The notes: generated by a model from the letters alone, not told the origin. A DNA stretch of 37,223 nt from Eubacteriales bacterium (GCA_045629205.1 JAZQQT010000056.1:1-37223); one strand, 5' to 3'; positions 94 to 30,946 are shown, counted from the stretch's first letter. Made by a program: numbers and translations.

Positions 94-109
94 ACAAACT
101 GGGATTTGT
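94..109 (-). repeat. 16-bp quasi-palindromic boundary site, downstream type (ACAAA-TCCCAG-TTTGT on minus)
   Basis: Resembles sites at 1606, 29150, 29708 and 30876. Confidence 0.65.
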
Positions 110-201
110 TTTTTCTTATCACAAACGGAATAAAACAATCAATCAACTATCATACAAACAGTGACAATTTATTCTTTCTATTGATGCTTTGTAACATTTC
201 G

Positions 202-1362
202 TTATTGTTCCTTATCTCTTTCCTTAGAAACAAACTTGATGAGAGCTTTGTATTCGATGTTGTCCTTCAGTTCATCAAAAGCATTGTCACTGAGTTTTTC
301 AAGCAGTAAGGCCAAATATCCTTTTAATGATTTATTATTATGATAGTAATATAAGAAAGGAACTTCACGGAGCAACGGGGTCTTGGGTTTCATAGTATCT
401 GTGAACTTCCGACGTTCAACAAGATCATAATCCACCATCTTTTTCAGCCAGTGAACGGCTTTGTCGGAATTGCCGAGCTTCATATAGGTTTTGGCAATTT
501 GAGCATACAGATCGCCGCTGTCACGAATATGAATGGGCGGCAGATATGCATCGTCCCTGAAAACATTCTCAATGAACGTGCCAGCCGAAGTATATACGGA
601 AAGCGCGTCTTCATAGTTCCCGCACAGAAAAAGAGCATTTCCGTTGCATACCATGTTATCAAGGAGCGCTTCAAAAAGGTAAGCAAAATCACACTGCCTG
701 TATGCTGATTCGTCCCTGTATTTCCGTTCCGCATGAGCGATGTATGCCAGCATATTGAACGTGGTCAGATCTGCTCGTGTCGGTAAACAGTCCGCATGTT
801 CTTTCGCCTGTATCATATTGCCGAAAACGGAGTGCAGCAGCACCATGATCATGTGTGTACGCAGAATGTCTCCCGTATTTTTCCCATAGGACACAACCAC
901 ATTTGCCTGACGGATGCTCTCTGCATAGATGTTCTTTGCGTGTGCCGCATCGTAACAGTCATTATCCGGATATGCAAGTGATAAGCCGTATTCAAGGCTC
1001 TTAATCAACAGAATCATATTGGTCGGATAACATTTCAACCCGTCCTGTATGGTGAGATATCCGCAATAAATACTTTCAGCCGTACAGATGCCATTTTCAT
1101 CATAAATCTGTTTCTTCGCCGTGTCAATGATTTTCATTGCCGCGTCGTCATCGCTTTCGCCGCATACACCGAACAACACATCCGTGCTTACTCCGAAAAT
1201 TTTGGCTATCGGGACGATCTGCGAAACATCCGGCATGCATATTTCATTTTCCCACTTGGAGACCGCCTGACCTGAAACATTAAGCAATTCAGCCAGATTT
1301 TCTTGTGTCAAACCGCGTTCACATCTAAGTTCTTTGATAATCTGTCCGATAGATTTCGACAT
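202..1362 (-). CDS. XRE-family HTH transcriptional regulator with long helical (TPR-like) C-terminal region
   Basis: N-terminal IGQIIKELRCERGLTQENLAELLNVSGQAVSKWEN is a typical HTH_3; ATG at 1362 follows AAGGAGG, so the start is trimmed from the ORF-track 1401; TPR-like segments such as YAQIAKTYMKLGNSDKAVHWLKK. Confidence 0.88.
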   Translation of the reverse strand: MSKSIGQIIKELRCERGLTQENLAELLNVSGQAVSKWENEICMPDVSQIVPIAKIFGVSTDVLFGVCGESDDDAAMKIIDTAKKQIYDENGICTAESIYCGYLTIQDGLKCYPTNMILLIKSLEYGLSLAYPDNDCYDAAHAKNIYAESIRQANVVVSYGKNTGDILRTHMIMVLLHSVFGNMIQAKEHADCLPTRADLTTFNMLAYIAHAERKYRDESAYRQCDFAYLFEALLDNMVCNGNALFLCGNYEDALSVYTSAGTFIENVFRDDAYLPPIHIRDSGDLYAQIAKTYMKLGNSDKAVHWLKKMVDYDLVERRKFTDTMKPKTPLLREVPFLYYYHNNKSLKGYLALLLEKLSDNAFDELKDNIEYKALIKFVSKERDKEQ

Positions 1363-1530
1363 ATTCTTATCCTCCTTAATATCTTTCGGTACCGTGTACA
1401 CAGTTTATCATAAAGTTATTCAGGTTTGAAGCTACCATTTTGATTGATAGTCTCAACTGAAGGTTGGATACTTACGGAGTACTCATTTTCAGTCATTGGT
1501 TCATCGTCAAAGCAGAGAGAAATGCGAAAG

Positions 1531-1558
1531 CTGTCGGAGACTCAGGTCTCTACGACAG
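1531..1558. repeat. Short intergenic hairpin, REP-like
   Basis: CTGTCG-GAGAC-tcag-GTCTC-ta-CGACAG; the minus strand reads GTAG-AGACCTGAGTCTC. Confidence 0.4.
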
Positions 1559-1600
1559 AAAACTCCATATTCTACATTCGTAAAAATAGATGTATACCTA

Positions 1601-1623
1601 TCTCCACAAATTCTGATTTGTCT
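1601..1623 (-). repeat. Boundary site, upstream type, followed by GGAG (AGACAAATCAGAATTTGTGGAGA on minus)
   Basis: 20/23 identical to 29148-29170 on plus. Confidence 0.75.
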
Positions 1624-1712
1624 GCACCCATAACGAGCATCGGATTTTGCCGTACAAAATCCACGTTCGGAAAAAACATCCTTATCGGGCTGTCGCAAAT
1701 GCCGCTGTTGTT

Positions 1713-2699
1713 TTATTTGTATAAACCCATTTCAACAAGTCTTTTTGCAAGTCTGTTTCCGTAAATCAGATATCCTTTATCGTTTGGATGGTAGTCGGGA
1801 TTAAAATAAGCTATGTCGTGAGGAATCAATTCCTGCCCGTTGATGACTGCGATGTTTGTTTCTTCGTATGCTTTGCGGAGAAGATCGTCGCATTTTCTAT
1901 ACCATTTTATATAATCCGGTTCGGCATCGGCGCCGCAATAGACCGGGAGAACGCCGACTGCGGGAACGTCTTTCCATAGTTCACGGACTTTTTTTGCGAA
2001 AGCCAAAGCGTCATTATAAAAATCATTTTCCGATTTGCGGTCACGGTCGTTACATCCGTATCCCAACACTATAAGCTTCGGTTCGCATATTTTATCGAGT
2101 GTATTCGCATCGTAAACGTATCCGTTGTTCCCCTGATTCATAATACGCGCGTTTAGGCGTCTGCCTACTATCGTGGGCATAGTGCAGGACGCATGGCGTG
2201 TGCCTATTCCCTGAAAAATGGAATCACCGAAAAAGAGAATATCGGTTCCCTGTTTATAATACGGACGGAAAATATCGGCATCTGCAAGCTCAACTTCTGA
2301 AATGCAGTCTTTACCGCCTACGGAGAGATAAACGGAGATACGACGTTCTTTCTTATTGCGGAATGAAACAGTGACGGTTTCGCCGCTTTGTGTCTTTACC
2401 CGACGACCGTCTGCGAGAATATCACAGGAAATTTTAGGGAGTTTATCGTTTTTCGGCTCTCCGCCTGCTTTGATTACGACAGATTTTGCATCGGTAATGA
2501 AGTCGAGGCATATTCCGGCGCTGCAAAGACTGTTATTATAAAAATAGTGCTCAAAATCCGAGCCGAAATATATTTTTTTGCCGTCAAATGCAATTTCCTG
2601 CTTTTCAGAAAAGCGGCGAAATCCGATTCCGTTTCCTTCTTTGACGGTTCTTACGGCACCGATGGTCGCTGAAATGATCTTTTTTTCATCGAGTATCAT
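1713..2699 (-). CDS. SGNH/GDSL hydrolase (esterase/acetylesterase-like)
   Basis: Blocks FFGDSI, NQGNNG, GYGCND and DYHPN; ATG at 2699 follows AAGGAGA. Confidence 0.88.
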   Translation of the reverse strand: MILDEKKIISATIGAVRTVKEGNGIGFRRFSEKQEIAFDGKKIYFGSDFEHYFYNNSLCSAGICLDFITDAKSVVIKAGGEPKNDKLPKISCDILADGRRVKTQSGETVTVSFRNKKERRISVYLSVGGKDCISEVELADADIFRPYYKQGTDILFFGDSIFQGIGTRHASCTMPTIVGRRLNARIMNQGNNGYVYDANTLDKICEPKLIVLGYGCNDRDRKSENDFYNDALAFAKKVRELWKDVPAVGVLPVYCGADAEPDYIKWYRKCDDLLRKAYEETNIAVINGQELIPHDIAYFNPDYHPNDKGYLIYGNRLAKRLVEMGLYK

Positions 2700-2723
2700 A
2701 ATATTTCTCCTTTTTCTTTTTTC

Positions 2724-2752
2724 ATTATATGCTAACGCGCTGATCTTGTCAA
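2724..2752 (-). promoter_or_regulatory. Consensus sigma-A promoter for the SGNH hydrolase
   Basis: TTGACA (2752-2747), 17 bp, TATAAT (2729-2724) on minus. Confidence 0.85.
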
Positions 2753-2784
2753 CAAAAAAACCGCAGAAAAACCTGCGGCTTTTT
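2753..2784 (-). terminator. Intrinsic terminator after clpC
   Basis: CCGCAG/CTGCGG stem with T-tracts on both strands. Confidence 0.75.
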
Positions 2785-2797
2785 ATCAATAACTGAA

Positions 2798-5269: not shown

Positions 5270-5287
5270 TATTATCAACTCCTATAA

Positions 5288-6268
5288 TCATGATATTCCT
5301 TTTCTGAGGATTTCGGCGCGTTTCGCGTCTCTGCTTTCTGCGTTTGTTGCGTCTGTTTCGAAAAGCATAAGAGTATACGGCTGAAGTGAGAGAAACAGTT
5401 TGTCGAGTTCCGTTGTCTCGATGCCGTTGATATTCATTTCGGCGCCCCATCTGATATCGGAATATACGGAAAGCCATTCTCTTGAACTCATGAGGCCGGC
5501 GTAACGCGCTATACCTTCAGCCCTGCGGATTCTGTCGGTTATCTGGGCTTTTTTTGAATATTTTTCGGTGAGCTCATGTTCGACAGAAATAATCTTTTCG
5601 ACTGCTTTCAGCATAACGTCAACGATTTCCGCTTCAGTCATACCCATTGTCATTTTGTTGGACATCTGATACAGACATCCCGAAGCATTACTTCCTTCTC
5701 CGTACATCCCTCTTGCGGTAAGTCCCAGCGGTTCCGTCGCTTTTACGATTTCTCCCACAAAATTTCCTTCGGTAATTGCGGGAAGATGAAGCATAAGCGA
5801 TGCTCTCAGACCGGTTCCGAGGTTGGTCGGGCAGGCCGTGAGATATCCGAATTCGTCCGAAAACGCATACGGAAGCATGGAATCGAAATAATCGTCGATT
5901 TCAAGCGCCTTGTCAAGCAGTTCATGCAGACATTCGCCTTTGCCGAAAACCTGAAGTCTGAGATGATCTTCTTCGCAAAGCATCGCTGATACTGTTTTGT
6001 CTTCGTTCAGCAGTAATGCTTTTCCGTCGCGTTTGTTTGCGAATTCGGGGCTGATAAGATGCTCTTCCACCATTGATCCTGCCTGAATGGGAGAGACTTC
6101 TTTCATAGAAAGATAAGAAAGACGGTATTTATTGTCATCTTTGACTTTATCGTGAATTGTTTTTGTTAGTTTTGCTTTTTGGTCGGCGGTAATTTTGGGG
6201 ATAAACGGATATTCGGAAAAATTACGCGCCAACCTGATTCGTGAAGATACGACGGATGTGTTTTTCAT
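5288..6268 (-). CDS. mcsB: Protein arginine kinase McsB
   Basis: SSRIRLARN, EEDHLR, TACPTNLGTGLRAS phosphagen-kinase motifs; lies between mcsA and clpC. Confidence 0.93.
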   Translation of the reverse strand: MKNTSVVSSRIRLARNFSEYPFIPKITADQKAKLTKTIHDKVKDDNKYRLSYLSMKEVSPIQAGSMVEEHLISPEFANKRDGKALLLNEDKTVSAMLCEEDHLRLQVFGKGECLHELLDKALEIDDYFDSMLPYAFSDEFGYLTACPTNLGTGLRASLMLHLPAITEGNFVGEIVKATEPLGLTARGMYGEGSNASGCLYQMSNKMTMGMTEAEIVDVMLKAVEKIISVEHELTEKYSKKAQITDRIRRAEGIARYAGLMSSREWLSVYSDIRWGAEMNINGIETTELDKLFLSLQPYTLMLFETDATNAESRDAKRAEILRKGIS

Positions 6269-6792
6269 GCGTTATCTCTGCCTCCCTCTTTGTCTTCCGA
6301 AAGCTTTTTTATTTTATCTCTCAGAACTGCGGCCTGTTCGAAATCTTCTTTTTTAATGGCTTCGCCGAGTTGTTTTTTGAGAGAGATAACGGTTTCTTTC
6401 GGCTCTGCCGCTTTTGCCGTGATCGGACGTTTTCCGACGTGCTTTTTGTTCCCGTGGTATTTATTTACGATGGCTTTGAATCTGTCCTTGAATGTTGAAT
6501 AACATTTTTCACAACCTGCCTTGCCTGTATTGTAAAATTCTGTTTCGGTCATAGAACAGAAGGGGCAAACAACAGTCTGTTCTTTCATTGTCAGAAGACT
6601 TCCGGATGATGGAAAACCGAAAAACTGATTCAGAAGATCATTCGGCCCGAATCCGATGTTCATGTCGGTATAATCAGACATGCCGAGTTTTTTTGCGCAG
6701 GCGGAACAGAGAAAAATCTCTCCCGTTTGTCCGTTTATTGTTTGTTTGATGTATGTTGTTGCTGTGTTTTTTTTGCAGTTTTCACAAAGCAT
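6265..6792 (-). CDS. mcsA: McsA, activator of McsB
   Basis: Four CxxC motifs (CENC, CSAC, CPFC, CEKC) and C-terminal UVR domain EDFEQAAVLRDKIK. Confidence 0.93.
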   Translation of the reverse strand: MLCENCKKNTATTYIKQTINGQTGEIFLCSACAKKLGMSDYTDMNIGFGPNDLLNQFFGFPSSGSLLTMKEQTVVCPFCSMTETEFYNTGKAGCEKCYSTFKDRFKAIVNKYHGNKKHVGKRPITAKAAEPKETVISLKKQLGEAIKKEDFEQAAVLRDKIKKLSEDKEGGRDNA

Positions 6793-6825
6793 TTTTATCT
6801 CTTCCTTTCGTTGTGTATGTATAAG

Positions 6826-7284
6826 TCATCCGTTTGAGGCTATTGTCAGAAGCATGCTTTTGAGAATCGCCGCTCGAATCGCATCTCTGTTACGCGGTGA
6901 CGCTGCCTGATAAAGTCTGTCCGGAAGAATGGCACTGAGTATTTTATAGTCGTAATCCGAGATATAGTCGTCAGCGGCAAGATTATCGAGGATAACCGAA
7001 CAGTCAAACGCCGAGATTCCGGAACCTATGCAATTAATTACATGCATAAGAACTTCGGGACGGTTTGAATAAACTCGTTTAATACGAATATATCCGCCGC
7101 CGCCGCGTCTGCTCTCCGTCATAAATCCGAGTTCCGGTGTAAATCTTGATGTAATTACATAATTGATCTGACTCGGGACGACATTGAACTGCTGTGCAAG
7201 CTCATTTCTTTTTATTTCGGTTTCTCCGTTACTTTCATCAAGTAATCGCATTATAAATTCGGTTATTATATCGCTTGATTTCAT
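6826..7284 (-). CDS. ctsR: Class III heat-shock repressor CtsR
   Basis: SDIITEFI, RNELAQQFNVVPSQINYVITSRF, ESRRGGGGYIRI; ATG at 7284 after GGAG gives 152 aa. Confidence 0.94.
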   Translation of the reverse strand: MKSSDIITEFIMRLLDESNGETEIKRNELAQQFNVVPSQINYVITSRFTPELGFMTESRRGGGGYIRIKRVYSNRPEVLMHVINCIGSGISAFDCSVILDNLAADDYISDYDYKILSAILPDRLYQAASPRNRDAIRAAILKSMLLTIASNG

Positions 7285-7305
7285 CTTTAAACTCCAAAAT
7301 CTGCT

Positions 7306-7322
7306 TTTGACTATCTTTGACC
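7306..7322 (-). promoter_or_regulatory. CtsR box 1
   Basis: Minus strand GGTCAAA-GAT-AGTCAAA matches the RGTCAAA-NAN-RGTCAAA heptad direct repeat. Confidence 0.9.
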
Positions 7323-7333
7323 TTTGCAAGTAT

Positions 7334-7362
7334 ATTTTACTGCAATAGTCAGAAAAGGTCAA
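7334..7362 (-). promoter_or_regulatory. Sigma-A promoter of the ctsR operon
   Basis: TTGACC (7362-7357), 17 bp, TAAAAT (7339-7334). Confidence 0.7.
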
Positions 7363-7363
7363 A
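7347..7363 (+). promoter_or_regulatory. CtsR box 2, opposite orientation, covering the -35 element
   Basis: AGTCAGA-AAA-GGTCAAA, one mismatch to consensus. Confidence 0.75.
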
Positions 7364-7387
7364 GGCTGTTTTGCGTTAAAAACAAAC

Positions 7388-7423
7388 AAAAAAACGGTAT
7401 ATGTAGTAAAACACATACCGTTT
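7388..7423 (-). terminator. Intrinsic terminator after the PAP2 gene
   Basis: AAACGGTAT...ATACCGTTT stem followed by a T-run on minus. Confidence 0.7.
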
Positions 7424-7442
7424 CTGCTTTTTTCTCACTGTT

Positions 7443-8009
7443 TTATTGATTTTTACGTTTTTTTATCACTTTGTCTGTAAAATTATAAAGCATGGGACCG
7501 ATTTTGATGCCGAGATAACCGCAAATCAAACCTATAACAGAACCTGCGATAACATCCGAAGTATAATGAGCGGAAAAGAAGATTCTTGAAAATGCGATTG
7601 CCGCGGCAAGAGGAAAAGACCACAGGGCATGATATTTGTTTGCTTTTGATATTCCTACGGAAGCTGCAAATGAGGCGGCGGCATGTCCGGAAGCAAAAGA
7701 AAAGTCGGAAGGCACAGAGATAAGAAGAACAATTGACGGATCTGTGATTAACGGGCGCGGACGTGCGACGATATTTTTTATTAAAACATTATTTATAATA
7801 AGAGCCGCTATCATGGCAAATGCCAAAATATACCCGCTTGCTCTTTTTTTCGGATTCAAAAGAAATACAGCCGCAAAAATAACCCATGGTAAACCGTAAT
7901 TTCCTATCCAACTGAGGAGTTTTAACAATATGTTGGGAAACTCCCCGAAAGAATGAGAAGAAAAATAATCAAGGATATTATTATCGAATTCCATGATAAT
8001 ATCCGTCAT
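7443..8009 (-). CDS. PAP2-family membrane phosphatase (undecaprenyl-diphosphatase BcrC-like)
   Basis: KNIVARPRP, SFASGHA and SRIFFSAHYTSDV motifs, hydrophobic helices; ATG at 8009 after AAGGAG. Confidence 0.9.
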   Translation of the reverse strand: MTDIIMEFDNNILDYFSSHSFGEFPNILLKLLSWIGNYGLPWVIFAAVFLLNPKKRASGYILAFAMIAALIINNVLIKNIVARPRPLITDPSIVLLISVPSDFSFASGHAAASFAASVGISKANKYHALWSFPLAAAIAFSRIFFSAHYTSDVIAGSVIGLICGYLGIKIGPMLYNFTDKVIKKRKNQ

Positions 8010-8043
8010 TTGCAGTTCTCCTTTACAATTTAAAGTTAAATTA

Positions 8044-8072
8044 AGGATAGCATTGTAAAGTATATTTGTCAA
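8044..8072 (-). promoter_or_regulatory. Promoter of the PAP2 gene
   Basis: TTGACA, 17 bp, TATCCT with extended TG. Confidence 0.6.
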
Positions 8073-8114
8073 TAAGAGTTACAATAATTGTTTCAAAATG
8101 TAAATATCTCAATC

Positions 8115-8143
8115 TTGCTTTTCTGTTTTTTATATGATATAAT
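8115..8143 (+). promoter_or_regulatory. Promoter of the transketolase genes
   Basis: TTGCTT, 17 bp, TATAAT with extended TG. Confidence 0.7.
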
Positions 8144-8180
8144 GGCACGAAAAATATAATTAGAGGTGTAAAAGACAGAA

Positions 8181-8984
8181 ATGGAAACCAAAGAATTCGC
8201 TAGAAATATGCGAAAGCTTATTGTAGAAGCTATATATAATTCCAAGAGCGGACATCCCGGCGGATCTCTTTCCTGCACGGATATCGCTGCCGTTCTTTTT
8301 AATGAAGAATTGAGAATCGATCCCGCAGATGCGAAGAATCCCGACAGAGACAGATTCGTTATGTCCAAAGGACATGCATGCTGCACTCTTTATTCGGCTC
8401 TCGCTCTTAAAGGATATTTTGATCCTGCGGAAATGAAAAACTTCCGTAAAATCGACAGTTTTCTTGAAGGACATCCGGATATGAAAACGATTCCCGGTGT
8501 TGATATGACGACCGGTTCACTCGGTCAGGGTATATCAGCTGCCTGCGGTATGGCTCTTAACGGAAAGAGAAAGAATAAAGATTACCGTGTTTACGCTATT
8601 ATCGGCGACGGAGAATCTGAAGAGGGACAGGTATGGGAGGCTATGATGTTTGCCGCTCATTACAAACTTGATAACCTTTGTTTCTTCCTTGATTTTAACG
8701 GATTGCAGATAGACGGCGACATTACAAAAGTCATGTCTCCTCTTCCTTATCCCGAAAAACTCAGCGCCTTCGGAATGAATGTTATTGAAATAGACGGTCA
8801 TGATTATGATCAGATCAGAAACGCAATTGCTCAGGCTAAAGAATGTAAGGGCAAACCCACGGCGGTTATCGCTCATACAATCAAGGGTAAAGGTGTTTCG
8901 TTTATGGAAAATGTTGCTTCATGGCACGGAACTGCGCCGAATGAAGAACAGTATTTACAGGCTATGAAGGAGTTGGATGCGTAA
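8181..8984 (+). CDS. tktA: Transketolase, N-terminal (TPP-binding) subunit
   Basis: SGHPGGSLS, DRFVMSKGH, TGSLGQG, GDGESEEG, TIKGKG, WHG motifs. Confidence 0.93.
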   Translation: METKEFARNMRKLIVEAIYNSKSGHPGGSLSCTDIAAVLFNEELRIDPADAKNPDRDRFVMSKGHACCTLYSALALKGYFDPAEMKNFRKIDSFLEGHPDMKTIPGVDMTTGSLGQGISAACGMALNGKRKNKDYRVYAIIGDGESEEGQVWEAMMFAAHYKLDNLCFFLDFNGLQIDGDITKVMSPLPYPEKLSAFGMNVIEIDGHDYDQIRNAIAQAKECKGKPTAVIAHTIKGKGVSFMENVASWHGTAPNEEQYLQAMKELDA

Positions 8985-9916
8985 TGGAAAAGATTGCTTT
9001 AAGAGATGCATACGGTACCGAGCTGGTTGAACTCGGGAAAAAATACGATAATCTGTTTGTGCTTGATGCCGATCTTACAAAATCAACCAAAACAGCCGGA
9101 TTTGCAAAAGCATTTCCCGAAAGATTTGCAAACTGCGGCATTGCCGAAGGTAATATGATTTCTGTTGCTGCAGGTCTTTCTACCTGCGGAAATATTGTTT
9201 TTGCTTCTTCGTTTGCCATGTTTGCTGCAGGCAGAGCCTACGAACAGGTAAGAAATGCGGTAGGTTATCCGAAGAATAATGTTAAAGTAGTCGCAACTCA
9301 TGCCGGTCTTACAGTCGGCGAAGACGGTGCTACTCATCAGTGTCTCGAAGACATGGCGCTTATGCGTGCCATTCCGGGTATGATAGTTATCTCTCCTTCC
9401 GACGCAACACAGACAAAAGCGGCACTTCGTTTTGCCTGCGAATATAACGGACCCGTTTACATCCGTCTCGGAAGACTGGCAGTTCCCGTTATATACGGTG
9501 ATGATTATGTTTTCACTCCCGGTATTTACAATAAAATAGCAGAAGGTTCCGATATTACTCTTATGTATACCGGTCCGTTCTATGAAGCAGCTCTTCAGGC
9601 AAGAGAAATCCTTGCCGCAAAAGGCATCAGCCTTAAGATTCTTGACGTTCCGTCAATTAAACCTTTTGCAGATGAGGCTGCTGTTGAAGCAGTCAGAGAT
9701 ACCAAGGCAGTCATTACGATCGAAGATCACAATACGGTCGGCGGTTTCGGTTCTGCTGTCTGCGAAAGCCTTTGCAATATCGGAGGCGGAGTAAAAGTCA
9801 TCAGACTCGGTGCTCAGGATAAATTCGGAAAATCCGGCACCCCGGCACAGCTTCTTGCAAAATACGAAATGGATGCAGATGCGATTGTCGCAGCTGCAGA
9901 AAAGCTTTCCAAATAA
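8984..9916 (+). CDS. tktB: Transketolase, C-terminal subunit
   Basis: LDADL, GIAEGNM, GEDGATHQ, GPVYIRLGR, IEDH; TAATG overlap with the upstream subunit. Confidence 0.93.
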   Translation: MEKIALRDAYGTELVELGKKYDNLFVLDADLTKSTKTAGFAKAFPERFANCGIAEGNMISVAAGLSTCGNIVFASSFAMFAAGRAYEQVRNAVGYPKNNVKVVATHAGLTVGEDGATHQCLEDMALMRAIPGMIVISPSDATQTKAALRFACEYNGPVYIRLGRLAVPVIYGDDYVFTPGIYNKIAEGSDITLMYTGPFYEAALQAREILAAKGISLKILDVPSIKPFADEAAVEAVRDTKAVITIEDHNTVGGFGSAVCESLCNIGGGVKVIRLGAQDKFGKSGTPAQLLAKYEMDADAIVAAAEKLSK

Positions 9917-9933
9917 TATAATAAAGTCGCGTA

Positions 9934-9967
9934 GAGGCACTGTTTATATTTTTATATACAGTGTCTC
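9934..9967 (+). terminator. Hairpin after transketolase; possible weak terminator
   Basis: GAGGCACTGT...ACAGTGTCTC followed by GTTT. Confidence 0.45.
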
Positions 9968-9989
9968 GTTTATAAAGAAAGGAAACAGC

Positions 9990-11585
9990 ATGAAGAGAAA
10001 TATTCTTTGCAGAACCCTTTGTTTGATTCTTTCCCTTATAATCGCAATGTCGCTCTTCGCCGCATGCGAAAATAACACGACGGATCCCAATGTCGATCAG
10101 CCGGATGATCCTACAGTTCCCCATGAACCTGTTAAAAAGTCTGTTACCGGCGTGGTCCTTTCCGAAACGGAATTCTTTTTGGATACTCAGGGATCTATGT
10201 ATCAGCTTGTTGCGACCGTTATTCCCGCCGATGCGGAAAATACCGGAATTTCATGGTCTTCCAGCGATGAGACTGTTGCTTCCGTTGATCCGTTTTTCGG
10301 AATGGTTCTTGCGTTGAATGAAGGAACCGCTGTTATTACCGTAACTACCGACGACGGCGGATTTACTGCTTCGGCAACCGTTACTGTGGATTTTCCTGAA
10401 GTTGATGTTGAAAATATAAATCTTTCCGTAGAAAAACTTTCATTGTATGTTGATGATGTTTCCGGTATTACAGCTGAAATTCTTCCGGAAAACGCAACGG
10501 ATAAAACGATAGTATGGACTTCTTCGGATGAAACTGTTGCTGTTGTCGATGAAGGCGGTGTGGTTACAGCCCTGAAAAAAGGAACCGCAACGGTTACGGC
10601 AACGACGGTAAACGGTTTAAGTGCAAGCGTGCAGGTTGAAGTTAAGAAAAAATCAAGTTCCGACGGAAACTCCGGGTCGGACAGCAGCTCAGGCAATGAA
10701 GACGAAACGGGTTCAAAAGTTGATACTACCGATTTGAGTTTCGGACAGAATCCGAAATATCCGGCTGCAAAACTTAACGATAATGGATTCCTTTGCTCCG
10801 ATATACTCGATAAATACAACGCATATAACAAAGATATCGTTGCCTGGTTATATCTTCCCGGAACCAATCTGAATTTTCCCGTTGCTCAAAGAGAAGATAC
10901 CGATTATCTGGCTCTCGATTCGTATTATCTTACAAGAGGCCTTGATAAAAAGAGCAGAAAAGGCGGTGCCTGCTACATAGATGAGCGTGCATCCATGGTC
11001 AGAAATTACGGTCAGTTCCTTAATCATAATACTGTTATTTACGGACACGCTCTTGATGAAGGAAATATTTTCGACCAGCTTGAAAATGTTACCCGAACAG
11101 ATGAATGGTTTAATAAAGAATCCAACAGATACATATACATCAATACTTTGAAATACAGATATAAATTCAAGATTTTCGCAACGTATTATCTTGATACTTC
11201 CGATGTTTCCAAATCTGTTATTCAGGACATCGATTTTATTAAAATCAATGATGTTCTGGCGCTTTATGCCGGAGATCCTTCAAATGAAAACTACAGCGAT
11301 GCGCGCACCCGCCTTATAAATCATGCCCCGAGCAGTAAATTTATGCTCTCGGAAAAATCATTGAAGGATACGGACGCATTTAAAAATTTCTTTAATAACT
11401 GGAAAGACAGGGTTTGTTCTTCATATTCTGAAAAAGGCGTAAATTACGGATATCTTAAGAACCGTGATTTCGGTGTAACGGTTTCGGATGATGATGTTTG
11501 CATTACTCTTTATACGTGTGCCGATTCGGGAGAAGTAATGAAGTATATTGTTCAGGCCGTTATGGTTGCCAAAGAATCAAGATAA
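9990..11585 (+). CDS. Lipoprotein with two Ig-like (Big_2) domains fused to a class B sortase domain
   Basis: Signal peptide ending LFAA-C; two repeats with WSSSDETVASVD / WTSSDETVAVVD; Ser/Gly/Asp linker; NKDIVAWLYLPGT, NTVIYGH, ITLYTC; ATG at 9990 after AAAGGA. Confidence 0.85.
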   Translation: MKRNILCRTLCLILSLIIAMSLFAACENNTTDPNVDQPDDPTVPHEPVKKSVTGVVLSETEFFLDTQGSMYQLVATVIPADAENTGISWSSSDETVASVDPFFGMVLALNEGTAVITVTTDDGGFTASATVTVDFPEVDVENINLSVEKLSLYVDDVSGITAEILPENATDKTIVWTSSDETVAVVDEGGVVTALKKGTATVTATTVNGLSASVQVEVKKKSSSDGNSGSDSSSGNEDETGSKVDTTDLSFGQNPKYPAAKLNDNGFLCSDILDKYNAYNKDIVAWLYLPGTNLNFPVAQREDTDYLALDSYYLTRGLDKKSRKGGACYIDERASMVRNYGQFLNHNTVIYGHALDEGNIFDQLENVTRTDEWFNKESNRYIYINTLKYRYKFKIFATYYLDTSDVSKSVIQDIDFIKINDVLALYAGDPSNENYSDARTRLINHAPSSKFMLSEKSLKDTDAFKNFFNNWKDRVCSSYSEKGVNYGYLKNRDFGVTVSDDDVCITLYTCADSGEVMKYIVQAVMVAKESR

Positions 11586-11597
11586 AGGTGATTTTTA

Positions 11598-12819: not shown

Positions 12820-12829
12820 AATTTTTTAT

Positions 12830-17989: not shown

Positions 17990-18003
17990 GGAGGGATGCA
18001 GAA

Positions 18004-20348: not shown

Positions 20349-20361
20349 GGGGGAGAGAATA

Positions 20362-23187: not shown

Positions 23188-23198
23188 GAAGGAGGGAA

Positions 23199-24176: not shown

Positions 24177-24188
24177 GGAGGTAGTAAA

Positions 24189-25205: not shown

Positions 25206-25214
25206 TTCTATTTG

Positions 25215-25241
25215 ATAGAGGGCTGAAAAGCCCTCTATTTG
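25215..25241 (+). terminator. Intrinsic terminator closing the ABC module
   Basis: ATAGAGGGCT-gaaa-AGCCCTCTAT-TT. Confidence 0.75.
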
Positions 25242-25257
25242 TAAGGATGTGATTTTT

Positions 25258-27222
25258 ATGATGGGTCCGTTTTTCGGTCCTCCGGGAGATACCCCCCGAA
25301 TAGAGAAGCCAAAAACCTTAAAGGGCTGGATAACATTTGTTTCAAAAAATTTCGTTGATACCTTGCACAGGCTCGGATATATTTATAAGCTTGTGTGGGA
25401 TGTTCGTCCGTGGATCCTTTTTTTGATGGGTTTTATGACGTTATTCAACGGTGTAGCTCCTATCGTCGGGTCTCTTATTACAAAAAGATTTATTGATGAC
25501 CTTGCTTTAGCCGCAACAGGCAATCTTGACGGTGGGCTGAAAGCACTTCTCGGAGTCCTTATATTTCAGATTGTTTACGAGTTGTTTTGCAGTATTGTAA
25601 ACTCTCTCAGTAATATGGTGACGCGTATATCAAATGAAGTTCTTGCTTACAGCATCAAGCTTAAAATCATGGATAAAGCAAGAACAATAGATTTGTCATC
25701 GTTTGATATGCCGGAATTTTATTCCAAAATGGAAAATGCCAATCGCGAAGCCGGAAACAGACCGCTTTCCGTTTTGCAGGCATCTTTCTCGATTATTTCG
25801 TCGATTATCAGCCTTGTGGGCTATATAGTCATTCTCGGCGGAATGATTAAGTGGGCACCTCCGGTTTTAATCGTTATGGCAATTCCGACTACCATTGTTC
25901 ATTATTATTACAGAAGAAAAATGTTCAGATACTTCCGTCGCAAATCAAAAGACAGAAGACAAATGGATTATTATTCCAATGCAATAGTTGATAAGGATCT
26001 CGTTAAAGAAATTAAACTTTTTGATCTTTCCGAAACATTTATCGGAAAATACAAACGAGTATTTGATTCGTATTTCAAAGGAATCAAATCATTGATTTTC
26101 GCAGAAAATTTCTGGGGAATCGGACTCAGCGTGGCCAATACGGGTATAAACGGGGTCGTTCTGTATAAAATTATCGAAAGCATAGTTAACGGCGGAACAA
26201 TAGGTGATTATTCACTGTATTCCGGCGCTTTGTTTGCGATTTCCGGCAGGGTTTCCGATATAGTCAATACTTCCGCAGGCATATATGAGGGCACTTTGTA
26301 TATTGACAACCTGATTGCGTTCATGGAAGAAGAACCTAAAATCGTTTCTTCACTTCCGGAACCCAGAAAAGTTAACAGACATATCAATCATGTTATCGAA
26401 TTCAAACATGTATCTTTCAGCTATCCCGGTAAAACCAGAATGGTCCTTAAAGACATCAATATAACTATTAACGGCGGGGAAACGGTCGTTCTGGTCGGAC
26501 TTAACGGCGCCGGTAAGACGACACTCCTTAAGTTACTCACGCGTTTGTATGATCCGACAGAAGGAATGATTCTCTTTGACGGATATGATATCCGTGAGTA
26601 TTCGGTTGAGGAAATTTACAGCGTTTTCGGTATTATCTTCCAGGACTTCGGTAAGTATGCCTTTACCGTAGGGGAAAATATCGGGTTCGGTCAGATAGAA
26701 AGAGCGGACGACGGAAAAGCGATTATTGAGGCTGCCGAAAAGAGTGCCGCTGCAGATTTTATAAAAACACTCAACGACGGATATGATACGCCGCTTACAA
26801 GACAGTTTGAGGAAAACGGTCTTGAGCTTTCAATCGGTCAGTGGCAGAAGATAGCTGTAGCCCGCGCCTTTTTCAGAGATTCCGACATAATGATTCTTGA
26901 TGAGCCCACTGCGTCCCTCGACCCAATGGCAGAGCAGGAGATTTTCTCGCAGTTTGACCGTTTGAGAGGAAACAAATCAACCATATTTGTTTCGCATAGG
27001 CTTTCAAGTGCGACGATAGCAAATAAAATAATCGTTCTTGAAAACGGCTGTGTCGTTGAAGAAGGAAACCATCGCGAGCTTATGGATCTTAATGGTAAAT
27101 ATGCGGAACTGTTCTCGACGCAGGCAAAGAGATATATTGAGAATATTAATGAAGAAGACCTGAAAAATATGCAGGAAAGTGAGCCTTCCGAGATCAAAAC
27201 AGTTCCGGGAATCACCAAATAA
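25258..27222 (+). CDS. ABC exporter, fused permease/ATP-binding protein
   Basis: N-terminal TMD; Walker A GLNGAGKT, signature LSIGQWQK, Walker B IMILDE, SHRLS; start could also be GTG 25249. Confidence 0.92.
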   Translation: MMGPFFGPPGDTPRIEKPKTLKGWITFVSKNFVDTLHRLGYIYKLVWDVRPWILFLMGFMTLFNGVAPIVGSLITKRFIDDLALAATGNLDGGLKALLGVLIFQIVYELFCSIVNSLSNMVTRISNEVLAYSIKLKIMDKARTIDLSSFDMPEFYSKMENANREAGNRPLSVLQASFSIISSIISLVGYIVILGGMIKWAPPVLIVMAIPTTIVHYYYRRKMFRYFRRKSKDRRQMDYYSNAIVDKDLVKEIKLFDLSETFIGKYKRVFDSYFKGIKSLIFAENFWGIGLSVANTGINGVVLYKIIESIVNGGTIGDYSLYSGALFAISGRVSDIVNTSAGIYEGTLYIDNLIAFMEEEPKIVSSLPEPRKVNRHINHVIEFKHVSFSYPGKTRMVLKDINITINGGETVVLVGLNGAGKTTLLKLLTRLYDPTEGMILFDGYDIREYSVEEIYSVFGIIFQDFGKYAFTVGENIGFGQIERADDGKAIIEAAEKSAAADFIKTLNDGYDTPLTRQFEENGLELSIGQWQKIAVARAFFRDSDIMILDEPTASLDPMAEQEIFSQFDRLRGNKSTIFVSHRLSSATIANKIIVLENGCVVEEGNHRELMDLNGKYAELFSTQAKRYIENINEEDLKNMQESEPSEIKTVPGITK

Positions 27223-27233
27223 TGTAAATAGAT

Positions 27234-27263
27234 GCGCTCCGCTCTTTGCGGAGCGATTTTTTT
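27234..27263 (+). terminator. Intrinsic terminator
   Basis: CGCTCCGC-tcttt-GCGGAGCG followed by ATTTTTTT. Confidence 0.8.
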
Positions 27264-27342
27264 ATCAAAATGGTGTGAGGTTTTTATGGTTTTTACTGTC
27301 TAATAAATGAAAGGTATAAATCTTTCGGAAAGGGGTAATCAA

Positions 27343-27897
27343 ATGGATAACGGTGCAAGTAGCTACCGCCGTTTTCTTGATGGTGATGATAACGGGCTTG
27401 TTGATATAATAAGAGACTATAAAGACGGCTTGATTTTATTTCTTAACGGGTTTGCGGATAATATCAACGTCGCAGAAGAACTTGCGGAAGATACGTTTGT
27501 TAAAATCGGAATTAAAAAGCCTTATTTTGCCGGAAAATCATCTTTTAAAACCTGGCTTTATGCCATCGGTCGTAATGTCGCAATCAACAAAATAAAAAAA
27601 TATTCAAAGATTGAGCAAGTACCGATTGATGAAAGTTCGGAAGAAGCCGACATAATGTCTCTTGAGCATGATTATATCCGTGAAGAAAGAAAAATCGTAA
27701 TACGCAAAGCGATGAAAAATCTTAATAATGACTATCGGCAGGTTTTGTGGCTGATATATTTTGAGGGTTTATCGAATAAAGAAACGGCATCCGTTATGGG
27801 GAAAACCATCCATAATATCGAAACGATTGTATATAGAGCAAGACAATCACTGAAATCGGAACTGATAAAGGAAGGCTTTAATTATGAAAACTTATGA
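27343..27897 (+). CDS. ECF RNA polymerase sigma factor
   Basis: AEELAEDTF, SFKTWLYAIGRN (region 2), LIYFEGLSNKETA..IYRARQSLK (region 4); ATG at 27343 after AAGGGG. Confidence 0.92.
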   Translation: MDNGASSYRRFLDGDDNGLVDIIRDYKDGLILFLNGFADNINVAEELAEDTFVKIGIKKPYFAGKSSFKTWLYAIGRNVAINKIKKYSKIEQVPIDESSEEADIMSLEHDYIREERKIVIRKAMKNLNNDYRQVLWLIYFEGLSNKETASVMGKTIHNIETIVYRARQSLKSELIKEGFNYENL

Positions 27898-29056
27898 GGA
27901 AATGGCACGAGATACATTTGATAGAATTACCGAATATAAATCCGAACAGAAAAAACGAAGAAAAGCCATATTTAAAATTTCTTCTGTTGTTCTGAGTCTT
28001 TGTTTGGTGGCAATCATTGGCATTGGCTTTTGGAAATCGGACATATTAAAATCCGAAACGCCTATGCACGAACCTGAACCCGGATATAATCCTGTAATCG
28101 AGCCTGAAGATACAACGGCAGGAGGTCAAGAGATAGATTATCCCTCTCTTGAAAAATCTGTTATCACTTTGATTAATGTCAATAGTTTTTCAACTTTATA
28201 TACTACGGCATCCGGACTTAACACCAGCCTGACGTCGCATATAGTAAATGAATCTACCGATTTTTGTATTACTGATTCAGATGATAAATATGCTGTTTTA
28301 TCAATAATGGCGGGTAAGTGGCTTCAGTCTATGCTTTTCCGTGATTATTCAACATTATATTCGCTTTTCCCGGATGAGGTTCAGGATTTTTTTTGGAAGA
28401 ATAGTTTATGTGATTATTCATATATAGAATCATCATATAGTTCTCTTGCGGAAGCTTTGGCAAAAGCAGATAAGGTTAACTCCGATATACTTCCGTTTGA
28501 TACGTTTAATTTCAAATATGATGTTGTTCCCGTGGAAATGTTTTCTTCGGTTGAGGAATTCTTGGAATGGGATAAAGACTACGGATATTGTTTCGCTAAT
28601 TATCCTGGGATTGATGTGTCAAAAATCACGGATGTTGCCGTGGCTACAGTGGGTTATGTTTCCATAAATGTCAACGGCGGAATAGAACTTGAAATAGGTG
28701 GTACTGGCGGGGACACATTTATTATCTATGAGTATAACGGGAAATGGTATGTATGGGCCACCTTGTTATATGATGAAGAACTTTTTGCAATGATATCCAA
28801 TGAAACCAGTCATTACGGTGATTATTATGCAGAAGAATCATATTCCGGCGTTGTACTTGAAATAAACGACGGTATGATTATTATGGGCCCTTCTTCTGAC
28901 AGTAAAGGTGAATATTGTTTTTACTTTAAAAACGCTGAAAAATGTGATTTTTCCGTTGGAGACAATATTACCGTAACGTATTATAACGGATTTTCGATTT
29001 GGAGTAAAAACCATTTGCGCTGTAAAACCGCCGTCACGATTTCTCATGATTCTTAA
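27884..29056 (+). CDS. Putative membrane anti-sigma factor
   Basis: Overlaps the sigma stop; short N-terminus, KKRRK, single TM, large extracellular domain. Confidence 0.65.
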   Translation: MKTYEEMARDTFDRITEYKSEQKKRRKAIFKISSVVLSLCLVAIIGIGFWKSDILKSETPMHEPEPGYNPVIEPEDTTAGGQEIDYPSLEKSVITLINVNSFSTLYTTASGLNTSLTSHIVNESTDFCITDSDDKYAVLSIMAGKWLQSMLFRDYSTLYSLFPDEVQDFFWKNSLCDYSYIESSYSSLAEALAKADKVNSDILPFDTFNFKYDVVPVEMFSSVEEFLEWDKDYGYCFANYPGIDVSKITDVAVATVGYVSINVNGGIELEIGGTGGDTFIIYEYNGKWYVWATLLYDEELFAMISNETSHYGDYYAEESYSGVVLEINDGMIIMGPSSDSKGEYCFYFKNAEKCDFSVGDNITVTYYNGFSIWSKNHLRCKTAVTISHDS

Positions 29057-29113
29057 AGGTGAGGTCATTAAGCGAAGCATTGTGTTCTGTGGAATAGCGA
29101 TGCATAACATCAT

Positions 29114-29142
29114 TTGACAAGTAATTAAATACAAAGTATAAT
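29114..29142 (+). promoter_or_regulatory. Consensus sigma-A promoter
   Basis: TTGACA, 17 bp, TATAAT. Confidence 0.85.
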
Positions 29143-29147
29143 TGTAT

Positions 29148-29170
29148 AGACAAATTAGGATTTGCGGAGA
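29148..29170 (+). repeat. Boundary site, upstream type, running into the RBS (AGACAAATTAGGATTTGCGGAGA)
   Basis: 20/23 identical to the reverse complement of 1601-1623. Confidence 0.75.
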
Positions 29171-29179
29171 AAAACAGAA

Positions 29180-29704
29180 ATGAAAAAAGTACTTGTTTTA
29201 CTGACAGCACTTGTATATTTGTTTTCTCTTATCGGATGTTATGTCCGGATACCGGAAAACCCGGAAACCGACTTGGAATTCTGGATACAGGAGAACATGG
29301 ACGGCTTTGATTTTTCCGGTATGCGGGAACGATACGGCATAATGGGCGGACGGGAATATTACGGTTCCGGTTATTTTCCGACGGTAAATGAAAACGGAGA
29401 ACAAATCGATCCCGATGAATGTGTTATTTACACGATTACTTCTTATCCCGATTATTCAGATAATGAACAACATATAACCCGCATTACAATTACAGATCCG
29501 GCAGTAAAGATTTACGGTCTTTGTTCCGATTCATCTCTTGAGGAGTTTGACGTCTTGTTCGAGAGCATGGATTACACGATTGAGAACGTGGGAAATACAG
29601 GGTTGGTCCACAGAGCCGTGAAAGATAAAATATCATTTGCATACGGAAACGGATCAATTACTATCAGCGTGGAAGTTACAAACAAGTATGGTTTAATGTT
29701 CTGA
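29180..29704 (+). CDS. Hypothetical lipoprotein
   Basis: MKKVLVLL...LIG-C lipoprotein signal; GGAG RBS; own promoter. Confidence 0.8.
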   Translation: MKKVLVLLTALVYLFSLIGCYVRIPENPETDLEFWIQENMDGFDFSGMRERYGIMGGREYYGSGYFPTVNENGEQIDPDECVIYTITSYPDYSDNEQHITRITITDPAVKIYGLCSDSSLEEFDVLFESMDYTIENVGNTGLVHRAVKDKISFAYGNGSITISVEVTNKYGLMF

Positions 29705-29707
29705 AAA

Positions 29708-29723
29708 ATAAATCCCGATTTTG
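29708..29723 (+). repeat. Boundary site, downstream type (ATAAA-TCCCGA-TTTTG)
   Basis: Starts 4 bp after the stop codon; resembles 94-109 and 30876-30891. Confidence 0.6.
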
Positions 29724-29949
29724 TCTGGAAATGAATTTCTCGGGTAAAAGATTCCGACGCTGCATCCGGTTTTTATCGGCAATACGCAGTTCAAGTGCCG
29801 TGTATTCAAATGGTTTAGACTTTTAATTATGACGAATATATGAACTTTACGGGAATCCAGTATCCGTTTTCCGCTTTTTTACGTCTATATAAGTGAAGAG
29901 GGTTCAGAACGCTTTGGACATCTATTTTAAAACCCGGAAGGATAAAATC

Positions 29950-30858
29950 ATGAAAAAATGTGAAACAAGACTTGGGAAAATGATCTTTTTCGTTTTGGCG
30001 GTCATTCTGACTGTATTTCCTTTTGTCGGATGTGAAAGCGCCGTGACTGCGGATATGGACATAATATACGTCTATGTCACCGCGGTCGGCGACGATTGTA
30101 TTTATGGTAACAACACAAAGATTGTCTGCGGAAAAGACCACGGATATAATGTTTTCGATACCGTAAAGGTCGAATATTACAAGGCCGACATTGAAGAAAA
30201 ACAGGGCACGGAAACGGTGAATGAATTCGGCGAGTCGTATTATGTCAGATATGACCGAATTATCAAAAAGGTAGTTTTCTCCCGTAAGTCAAGACCGAAT
30301 GCAGGTGAACCGGTTTACGACAAGCCTGTCATCTATCTCTATCCCGAAAAAACGACAGAGGTCTTGGTCAATCTTGATTTCGACGGATATTTCACGAAAA
30401 CCATTCCGTCTTATCGTGACGGATGGCATGTAGTCGCATCTCCCGACGGTCAACTTATTGCCGACGACGGAAAAACTTATCCCTATCTCTTCTGGGAAGG
30501 CATTCCGAACAGTGAAATTACCATAACCGAGGGATTCTGCGTTGCGGGCAATCAAACCCGTGAATTTCTTGAAAAAATTCTGCCCGAAATCGGACTTGCC
30601 GAGAACGAATACACTGAATTTATCGAATATTGGCTCCCGTATATGGAGAACAACAAATATAACCTCATTCAGTTCTGTGGTGAAAATTATCTTGAGATCG
30701 CAAAACTCGAGATTACACCGACGCCGGATTCGGTGCTTCGAGTGTTTATGGCTTATAGTTCATCCGACGAATATATATCCCTCCCGGAACAGACATTTAC
30801 TCCTTTTGTCCGCAATGGGTTCACCATCGTGGAATGGGGCGGCACCTGTCTTGACTGA
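29950..30858 (+). CDS. Hypothetical lipoprotein with conserved uncharacterised KPVIYLYP domain
   Basis: FVG-C lipobox; DKPVIYLYPE, YPYLFWEG, EFIEYWLP, TIVEWGG; ATG at 29950 after GAAGGA. Confidence 0.8.
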   Translation: MKKCETRLGKMIFFVLAVILTVFPFVGCESAVTADMDIIYVYVTAVGDDCIYGNNTKIVCGKDHGYNVFDTVKVEYYKADIEEKQGTETVNEFGESYYVRYDRIIKKVVFSRKSRPNAGEPVYDKPVIYLYPEKTTEVLVNLDFDGYFTKTIPSYRDGWHVVASPDGQLIADDGKTYPYLFWEGIPNSEITITEGFCVAGNQTREFLEKILPEIGLAENEYTEFIEYWLPYMENNKYNLIQFCGENYLEIAKLEITPTPDSVLRVFMAYSSSDEYISLPEQTFTPFVRNGFTIVEWGGTCLD

Positions 30859-30875
30859 CAAATGGGGACAGCTCG

Positions 30876-30946
30876 ACCAATCCCGTTTTATCAAAACAAT
30901 AGAAACACCCCGTCGAAAAATATTTCTTTTCGGCGGGTATCTTTTT
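30876..30946 (+). repeat. Downstream-type boundary site plus terminator hairpin; homologous to 42-109 on minus
   Basis: ACCAA-TCCCGT-TTTAT, then CCCGTCGAAAA (30909-30919) / TTTTCGGCGGG (30927-30937), then TATCTTTTT. Confidence 0.65.

Follow-up and report, generated by a model that had tools for sequence, protein, structure and literature searches.

The stretch of DNA analysed here, hereafter the window, is a 37,223-nt contig of an Eubacteriales bacterium (GCA_045629205.1, JAZQQT010000056.1:1-37223) and represents the entire contig C56 of a 1.97-Mb assembly with an estimated completeness of 87.6% (C numbers below denote contigs of this assembly). Along it lie five copies of a 16-nt imperfect palindrome, with ACAAA-like and TTTGT-like arms around a 6-nt spacer, which a preliminary description made from the sequence of the window had interpreted as attachment-like sites of an integron-like gene-cassette system. 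That description distinguished upstream-type from downstream-type copies relative to the adjoining gene, and its coordinates and strands proved exact for all five: 94-109 (ACAAACTGGGATTTGT; gene on the minus strand, downstream-type), 1606-1621 (ACAAATTCTGATTTGT; gene on the minus strand, upstream-type), 29150-29165 (ACAAATTAGGATTTGC; plus strand, upstream-type), 29708-29723 (ATAAATCCCGATTTTG; plus strand, downstream-type with 3 arm mismatches), and 30876-30891 (ACCAATCCCGTTTTAT; plus strand, downstream-type with 2 arm mismatches). We also reproduced the identity of 20/23 between the two upstream copies, each of which runs into GGAG, and found the sites to be intergenic in 5/5 cases. The companion remark that none stands beside a housekeeping gene needs a qualifier, in that asnS (31102-32496) starts ~210 nt past site 30876. 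Taken as a whole, the observation stands for the coordinates and for the strong sites 94, 1606, and 29150, and has to be weakened for 29708 and 30876, which are degenerate.

The arrangement of the sites suggests that they bound two units in the window. The first, running from 1622 to 88 on the minus strand, holds a 399-aa XRE-type helix-turn-helix (HTH) and TPR regulator of RRNPP-like architecture (cargo 1; 202-1401, minus), in which Pfam HTH_3 matched at 5.5e-13 and the TPR matches fell below their own cut-offs. Its upstream-type (U) site GACAAATCAGAATTTGTGGAG (1602-1622, minus, containing 1606-1621) is an exact match to a pattern present in at least 118 loci of other genomes (L numbers below), and 5' of it a conserved module (ataaggatgtttt ... 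ggattttgtacggcaaaatccgatgctcg; 1623-1700, minus), which we call a slot module, is shared with loci bearing unrelated genes. This side aligned with C126:1118 (score 47) and C3:22421 (score 48) where the downstream sides scored only 8 and 18, and by eye a module of the same type stands ahead of different genes in L034, L043, L097, and L116. Between the U site and the start codon lies a leader of about 200 nt (1402-1601, minus) with a hairpin (about 1517-1556), an 8-codon open reading frame (ORF), and a weak promoter-like match (9/12 at 1596-1569), which makes the unit atypical next to the ~6-20 nt of typical cassettes. The downstream-type (D) site AACAAATCCCAGTTTGTT (88-111, minus) holds 94-109 and sits 93 nt past the stop of the HTH-TPR gene, and just beyond it a G+C-rich hairpin (42-80, minus) forms a terminator-type module that the terminator scan did not call, its loop exceeding 8 nt. 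The 100-nt flank beyond site 94 aligned with the flank beyond C126:234 (score 29), whereas the gene sides did not. At locus L031, the 60 nt upstream and 20 nt downstream of the motif are identical to window 1545-1682 (minus strand), and the source of that locus is probably the same or a very close species.

The second unit runs from 29149 to 30892 on the plus strand and would comprise a lipoprotein-like gene with or without a following ORF. It begins at a sigma-70-type consensus promoter (TTGACA, 17 nt, TATAAT; 29114-29142, plus; 12/12 positions), and its U site GACAAATTAGGATTTGCGGAG (29149-29169, plus, containing 29150-29165), which scored 23.7 bits by a U matrix of which it is itself a training member, starts 7 nt past the -10 hexamer. 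The gene that follows (cargo 2; 29180-29704, plus) encodes a protein of 174 aa that belongs to no Pfam family and has a lipoprotein-like signal sequence, and no relative of this protein was found in the metagenome contigs searched. A degenerate D-type site with one extra T, ATAAATCCCGATTTTGTC (29708-29725, plus), lies 4 nt past its stop codon. Next comes a 321-aa ORF of uncertain start and without a Pfam family (cargo 3; 29893-30858, plus), which has no U-type site ahead of it and may therefore belong to one two-gene unit together with cargo 2. A second degenerate D-type site, GACCAATCCCGTTTTATC (30875-30892, plus), sits 18 nt past the stop of this ORF; its downstream flank aligned with the flank of C124:2186 (score 31), whereas the upstream sides did not (score 8), and an intrinsic terminator with an 11-bp stem and a T-run (30909-30947, plus) ends the slot.

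Evaluating the palindrome against chance revealed 2 exact occurrences of ACAAA-N6-TTTGT in the window where 0.14 would be expected, and 0/100 shuffles reached 2. With at most 1 mismatch there were 6 occurrences against 3.0 expected (8/100 shuffles reached 6), and genome-wide the arm pattern with a spacer of 6 gave 15 matches, with other spacers from 0 to 15 giving 2-13 each. Given so small an excess over shuffles and over other spacers, the bare arms-plus-spacer pattern is weakly enriched, and the signal resides in longer, orientation-specific forms. As palindromes, sites 29708 and 30876 are within chance expectation. When a D matrix trained on 25 foreign sites only was then run on this genome, site 94 ranked 4, 29708 ranked 197 (9.5 bits), and 30876 ranked 309 (8.3 bits) of 3,926,456 positions, so that support for the latter two comes from the matrix score together with their position 4 and 18 nt past a stop codon. 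We regard the other three sites as secure and these two as plausible degenerate copies. Folded as single strands, the three strong sites form weak hairpins of -2.6 to -3.3 kcal/mol, and folding prediction gave no hairpin for 29708 and 30876; recognition of an integron-style folded single strand, considered for these sites, is not compelling.

A mismatch scan of the genome showed that the repeated unit is longer than 16 nt and comes in two forms. The upstream form U is GACAAATCAGAATTTGY followed by GGAG(G), typically begins 6-8 nt past a -10 hexamer, and ends a few bases ahead of a start codon, with copies on contigs C56 (twice), C66, C124, C126, C178, C156, C96, C70, C102, C30, C98, and C3. 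The downstream form D is GACAAATCCCRGTTTGTC and is found past stop codons and ahead of G+C-rich hairpins, with copies at C56:94 and on C124, C178, C118, C70, C96, and C126; the foreign-trained D matrix placed C124:2185, C118:77, C178:702, C126:228, C56:88, C96:4246, and C70:1286 at the top of its matches here. Genes flanked by both forms lie at C56 1606/94, C56 29149/29707, C124 1709/2186, C66 6971/7556, and C96 5069/4252, and the cargo genes of this genome are unrelated to one another (a DUF2268 protein, an alpha/beta hydrolase, a GNAT, a nitroreductase, and several without a family).

Aligning the 100-nt flanks of different sites in this genome revealed one-sided similarity such that either the promoter side or the gene side is shared. 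C178 and C30 share the promoter side (score 55) and not the gene side (7), while C178 and C156 share the gene side (98) and not the promoter side (8). A common promoter side likewise unites C56:1606, C126, and C3, and another unites C124 and C66, and the D sites have in common the terminator side only. Strong sites also cluster at contig ends, with 12/23 lying at most 500 nt from one against 10% expected (P = 6e-7, a value overstated because sites on one contig are not independent), which suggests that the assembler breaks at these units. A second short repeat, (A)TAAGGATGTTTTT, adjoins slots in both orientations (C56:1684, C3:21794, C66:6922, C124:1659, C126:161, and C29:1864), where it is located upstream of slot promoters and past slot terminators.

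Beyond this genome, the extended U form is unevenly distributed. With at most 1 mismatch, AAATCAGAATTTGYGGAG gave 7 matches here, 0 in three same-genus genomes, and 1 in the other 37 relatives, and the looser 13-mer AAATYSSRRTTTG gave 317 matches in 41 relatives against 51 for the pattern read backwards. A scan of 185,579 species' genomes recovered exact ACAAATCRRAATTTGYGGAG (full form (G)ACAAATCRRAATTTGYGGAG) in at least 118 loci, against about 9-17 chance matches over the whole collection by our rough estimate. Among the matches listed, to which the locus counts that follow also refer, nearly all hosts are gut or rumen Clostridia (Lachnospiraceae, Oscillospiraceae, and unclassified Eubacteriales), together with a few Erysipelotrichaceae, two Collinsella, and one Chitinophaga. 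The 118 loci hold 119 sites in 113 distinct contexts, and across these sites conservation drops to background just outside (G)ACAAATCRRAATTTGYGGAG(G), that is, over ~21 nt. The downstream site is conserved over ~18-20 nt, and the core of the sites is AAAT-N5-TTTG.

The upstream form sits past a promoter and ahead of the start codon of unrelated small genes, with TATAAT 4-14 nt upstream in 26/119 sites and a complete ORF of at least 60 aa coming next after 76 sites. These ORFs yielded 72 distinct cassette proteins without a common family (mean column identity 6%), including GNAT (10), methyltransferase (4), NUDIX (4), chloramphenicol acetyltransferase (CAT; 2), glyoxalase (2), HIT (2), histidine phosphatase (2), and P-loop kinase (2) proteins, which are typical accessory functions. 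In these other genomes, the stop codon of the cassette ORF very often runs into TAAAT(T/C)CCRRTTTGTCGAG. A strict downstream pattern was present in 25/76 post-stop windows, where 0.46 would be expected at the frequency it has across these loci, and in 11 of those 25 it begins 2 nt ahead of the end of the stop codon. The placement at gene boundaries proposed in the preliminary description was borne out by these counts, that is, by extended U sites ahead of genes (7 here against 1 in 40 relatives) and by D sites on or past stop codons (25/76 against 0.46). Tandem arrays of promoter, U, gene, D, and terminator also exist, such as five sites within 3.6 kb on G004 contig 21. On that contig (L153), positions 5900-10100 hold at least 4 tandem promoter-site-gene-site-terminator units, with upstream sites of a diverged variant, GATAAAYAAGAATTTGA, and ~30 nt conserved past each downstream site.

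To locate where homology between loci breaks, we compared 99 sites of other genomes that had at least 150 nt on both sides, giving 4851 pairs. Both flanks were shared in 9 of these pairs. The upstream flank only was shared in 10 pairs, with homology reaching to within 10 nt of the motif in 9/10, and the downstream flank only in 53 pairs, with homology starting within 10 nt of the motif in 52/53, such that homology breaks at the motif in 61/63 one-sided pairs, as the preliminary description had anticipated for recombination sites. At the 3' end of cassettes, homology stops inside the downstream site. One slot is documented in most detail, its ~313 nt of upstream sequence and its terminator being 92-94% identical between loci that carry three unrelated genes: a 146-aa protein (L048, L070, L115, and L123), a 171-aa GNAT (L022), and a 104-aa membrane protein (L055). 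Identity ends after GGAG and resumes within the D site at ..TTTGKCGAAYTG. In the reverse situation, a single cassette of 200 aa occurs at 98.9-99.5% identity in three unrelated contexts, in records titled Candidatus Apopatosoma, Brotomerdimonas, and Subdoligranulum, with homology ending in the D site, and a CAT cassette (95.9%) and a 146-aa cassette behave in the same way. Between L011 and L045 the break falls within the spacer. These comparisons across genomes indicate that homology breaks at the sites, that one slot can hold different genes, and that one gene can sit in different slots.

The same core also marks the ends of a mobilizable element. In 14 loci the motif abuts a conserved element end instead of a gene, and in 5/14 of these (L015, L052, L068, L081, and L126) a tyrosine integrase, complete at 441 aa and convergent, has its 3' end ~120 nt past the motif; the integrase is cut short in L041 and L121, and the remaining element-end loci are cut by the contig end or hold the first 180-190 nt only (e.g., L010 and L101). 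This integrase matched PF00589 at 3.8e-28 and is followed by an XRE regulator and then a MobA/MobL relaxase (MobA_MobL 5e-48). A two-genome comparison (L146 and L147) delimited the element to 8.35 kb, with a left end of host-ACAAATCGGAATTT|GTGGAG-element and a right end of element-CAATCGGAATTT|host, or CAATCAGAATTT|host in the second genome, such that a 12-13-bp direct repeat of the motif core, CAA(A)TCRGAATTT, stands at both junctions. In one genome (L146) the element splits a P-type cation ATPase, with the N-terminal domains and HAD positions 1-136 on one side and HAD positions 151-190 and the C-terminal domain on the other, which is plain site-specific integration at a motif-like sequence. 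The features that define an attachment site (an integrase with a relaxase, direct repeats of the core, and an interrupted target) are found together in other genomes and not in the window. In every cassette the core runs into GTGGAG, a sequence identical to the integrase-proximal arm of the element. In the copy at L146 (G042 contig 4, 2199-10546), the cargo genes encode a MarR regulator and a MatE efflux protein. A plasmid search returned one related element and two short end fragments, with the sites unannotated there. That relative, on an Agathobacter rectalis plasmid (80% identity), abuts a site of cassette type, ATAAATCAGAATTTAT-AGGAGG, and then a small gene, and it carries an FtsX/ABC transporter and a two-component system.

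The closest solved relatives of the integrase by sequence are chains 6EMY and 6EN0 ("Int protein"; E 7e-11), which we take to be the integrase of the conjugative transposon Tn1549, followed by XerA, XerC, and XerD. The match to 6EMY and 6EN0 covers ~45 C-terminal residues (383-428), and the N-terminal 200 residues had no solved relative at E<=0.001. In the present genome, C66:7556 is followed by a homologous non-coding stretch and then by only the last ~20 integrase codons. A candidate for the recombinase that the preliminary description had placed outside the window was thus found in other genomes: complete PF00589 integrases lie at 5/14 element-end loci and core repeats flank the two delimited copies, and this genome has a remnant only. 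A PF00589 search of this assembly did not return even an Xer-type gene, while 14/14 control genomes gave a match. Such a result is unusual for an organism whose chromosome is circular, unless it reflects loss in assembly or binning. At L074 (1080-2249), just beyond a 248-aa cassette and convergent to it, is a tyrosine recombinase distantly related to the 441-aa integrase (23% identity), and more than one integrase family may be associated with the sites.

We propose that the motif is the core of an att-type site-specific recombination site belonging to a gene-cassette system of gut and rumen Clostridia, a reading to which we assign a probability of roughly 0.7 on the basis of comparative sequence analysis. 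The earlier interpretation as attachment-like sites of an integron-like cassette system is upheld in this form, with the proviso that the system would be integron-like in logic only. A cassette would usually consist of one ORF, with its 5' end formed by the inner half of the upstream site, GGAATTTGYGGAGG, which would also supply the ribosome-binding site, and its 3' end formed by the inner half of the downstream site, ..TAAAT(T/C)C, which would often supply the stop codon. A slot would then consist of a promoter ending in the outer half-site GACAAATC and, on the far side, the outer half-site (C)RGTTTGTCGAG followed by a terminator, and slots would be scattered or in tandem. An integrase of the kind described above, supplied in trans by a mobilizable element, might insert or exchange cassettes at such slots. 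In one option, a circular cassette would enter an empty slot by a single crossover, which would yield exactly the U and D forms observed; in the other, a double exchange, U with U and D with D, would give the same mosaics and would explain why the site centres are conserved within, yet different between, the two classes. The link of the 441-aa integrase to the single-gene cassettes is circumstantial.

Several observations weigh against this proposal. The U centre TCRRAA and the D centre T[TC]CCRR differ, and classical tyrosine recombinases need identical overlap regions, so that simple U x D excision by such an enzyme is not expected. By our own count on consensus forms, the D centre is nearer to the reverse complement of the U centre (13/16 identities against 11/16), and with palindromic arms the relative orientation of U and D is ambiguous. 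Two of the five window sites (29708 and 30876) are weak, with arm mismatches, no fold, and matrix ranks of 197 and 309. An integrase match lies within 8 kb of only 9/118 loci; integrase matches at E<=1e-20 occur in 3/41 relatives, and the genomes richest in the 13-mer (G004, G013, and G039) are not among these. This 87.6%-complete assembly has no PF00589 match, only the 20-aa integrase remnant on C66, which is not proof of absence because binning often loses mobile elements. We saw no excision event, no circle, and no empty slot, and a metagenome scan for an empty slot of the best documented type (L048) was negative. Finally, metagenome contigs from four runs (four studies) bridge 29149, 29707, and 30875 without a joint, and without a loose end at the sites among the rows listed, spanning 28860-30839, 29443-30193, and 30617-31700; these are low-depth Logan contigs from which rare variants are dropped, so only the predominant arrangement is visible in them. 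The window arrangement is the prevailing one at the 29149-30875 locus, and the window units are likely fixed, currently immobile insertions, that is, relics.

The mobile unit could instead be the intergenic module, as in a miniature inverted-repeat transposable element, in which case an outer D half, a terminator, a promoter, and an outer U half with inverted ends TTTGTC ... GACAAA would move together and the motifs would be terminal repeats. This would account for the stretch from D to the next U being itself a conserved repeat in tandem arrays (G004 contig 21; L119), for the several promoter-plus-terminator modules that recur in this genome, and for the clustering of assembly breaks at them. 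It is hard to reconcile with the same gene being 96-99.5% identical in distantly named taxa, with unrelated flanks on both sides and bounded exactly by two sites, with inner half-sites that move together with the gene, giving it a ribosome-binding site and, in many cases, a stop codon, or with the same core serving as the attachment repeat of an integrase-bearing element, and we consider it improbable.

We give still less credence to the palindromes being operators or 5'-UTR hairpins of a regulon, bound at the transcription start by a dimeric HTH protein such as the XRE-TPR regulator at 202-1401. Palindromes of 16 bp are suited to dimeric HTH proteins, the U sites begin about 6-8 nt past -10 hexamers and hence at the transcription start, one of them precedes an XRE-type regulator gene, and the weak hairpins of the three strong sites (-2.6 to -3.3 kcal/mol) fit as well. 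Such a role leaves unexplained the D sites on stop codons, the breakpoints at the motif in 61/63 one-sided pairs, and the element flanked by core repeats inside a P-type ATPase gene. Near-identical 21-mers occur in many families yet are absent from the 3 same-genus genomes, and the sites are not confined to the promoters of a co-regulated set, the cargo genes being unrelated. The upstream site may nevertheless have a secondary regulatory role alongside recombination. Nor does the motif appear to fit a CodY box, a Spo0A box, or sigma-D or extracytoplasmic function (ECF) promoters. Least probable of all is that the five sites are unrelated pairings of ACAAA and TTTGT in AT-rich intergenic DNA; the one-mismatch count (6 against 3.0) and the other spacers (up to 13 against 15) lean that way, as do 29708 and 30876 with their 2-3 arm mismatches and no fold, and yet 0/100 shuffles reach the exact-pattern count of 2, and the extended forms recur at defined positions relative to genes, across genomes, and with breakpoints. 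Chance is refuted for 94, 1606, and 29150, and is live for the two weak sites taken alone.

Returning to the recombination-site reading, we compared the proposed system with known ones. Like integrons, it has single-ORF cassettes that are exchangeable between platforms and whose end, at or on the stop codon, is a short imperfect palindrome; it also has tandem arrays, a first site downstream of a promoter, an implicated tyrosine recombinase, and similar cargo (GNAT, glyoxalase, NUDIX, and CAT proteins). Unlike in integrons, the integrase is not IntI (56 bits against a TIGR02249 cut-off of 265, and 32 bits against an NF011946 cut-off of 435) and is seldom beside cassettes (9/118 loci), and a promoter and a terminator belong to every slot, where integrons rely on one Pc. 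The attC sites of integrons are 57-141-nt imperfect palindromes with R''/L''/L'/R' boxes and a GTTRRRY core, whereas the sites here are ~18-21 nt without that core, and their hairpins are weak or absent. Of four defining features of integrons, 3 (IntI, attC, and a single common promoter) are lacking here and 1 (an exchangeable ORF with its site) is present. The compact promoter-site-gene-site-terminator layout also resembles that used in recombinase-mediated cassette exchange.

The pdif (XerC/XerD) modules of Acinetobacter plasmids are alike in that accessory or resistance modules lie between short arm-spacer-arm core sites and are shuffled among replicons, with no transposase dedicated to this in the module. 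As described in PMC9771954, pdif sites are Xer binding sites with a 6-11-bp spacer, located on plasmids and bracketing modules in inverse orientation. Here, the conserved core is 16-21 nt with arms of 5-7 nt, promoter-terminator slots and chromosomal contigs are involved, and the only recombinase tied to the core is the integrase of a mobilizable element, not Xer. Integrative mobilizable elements and cis-mobilizable elements (CIMEs) offer a third comparison. Direct repeats of the same core form the attachment site at both ends of an element that encodes a tyrosine integrase and a relaxase, and the cassettes, which encode no integrase themselves, are bounded on either side by att-like half-sites. 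Section 2.3 of PMC5704250 describes a cis-mobilizable element as one that has kept its att sites and lost its integrase and transfer genes, and the same source presents CIMEs as decay products of whole elements integrated at a conserved gene end. Unlike CIMEs, the cassettes here are compact single ORFs of at least 72 gene types, with a ribosome-binding site and a stop codon in the half-sites and with slots as targets, and since they are compact single ORFs an origin by element decay is unlikely. By analogy, the nearest counterparts would be integrons in logic, pdif modules in layout, and integrative mobilizable elements with their cis-mobilizable derivatives in enzymology.

Elsewhere in the window, the region immediately 5' of the 29114 slot (27307-29056) holds the gene for an ECF-type sigma factor (Sigma70_r2, r4), which overlaps an ORF of 390 aa that has no family and may encode an anti-sigma factor, and a complete 16S rRNA gene lies at the contig end (35668-37180; Rfam RF00177, 1570 bits). 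This gene alone matched in an Rfam search of the window at gathering score, the motif sites fitting no known RNA family. The three same-genus genomes were uninformative for synteny: the only matches in them, at 69-73% identity and on different contigs, are asnS with the aminotransferase, and the 657-aa gene, and asnS there has a different upstream neighbour from that in the window.

A full-text literature search, outside of which supplements and subscription journals lie, returned no match to the motif strings, and supplementary lists of att sites could hold the core. The search likewise found no description of integron-like cassettes in Clostridia or Firmicutes, of pdif in Firmicutes, or of cis-mobilizable cassettes in Lachnospiraceae that matched this system, and to our knowledge integrons have not been reported in Firmicutes. 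We provisionally regard the system as not previously described; it probably represents a variant, hitherto undescribed, within a known kind of system. For the broader proposal the balance is about even: gut and rumen Clostridia may have a gene-capture system of their own, analogous to integrons and unrelated to them, that uses a miniature split att site, element-borne integrases acting in trans, and dispersed slots, and that carries accessory genes and genes for antibiotic modification (GNAT, CAT, streptogramin-acetyltransferase-like, and nucleotidyltransferase-like) between families of Bacillota. The 21-nt site is directly searchable, such that cassettes, slots, and recombinases could be catalogued in metagenomes, and it makes testable how single genes, as opposed to whole elements, move between Clostridia. 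If the proposal is true, much of the exchange of accessory genes among the dominant anaerobes of the gut would pass through a defined 21-nt site, and the genes exchanged would include those for drug-modifying enzymes.

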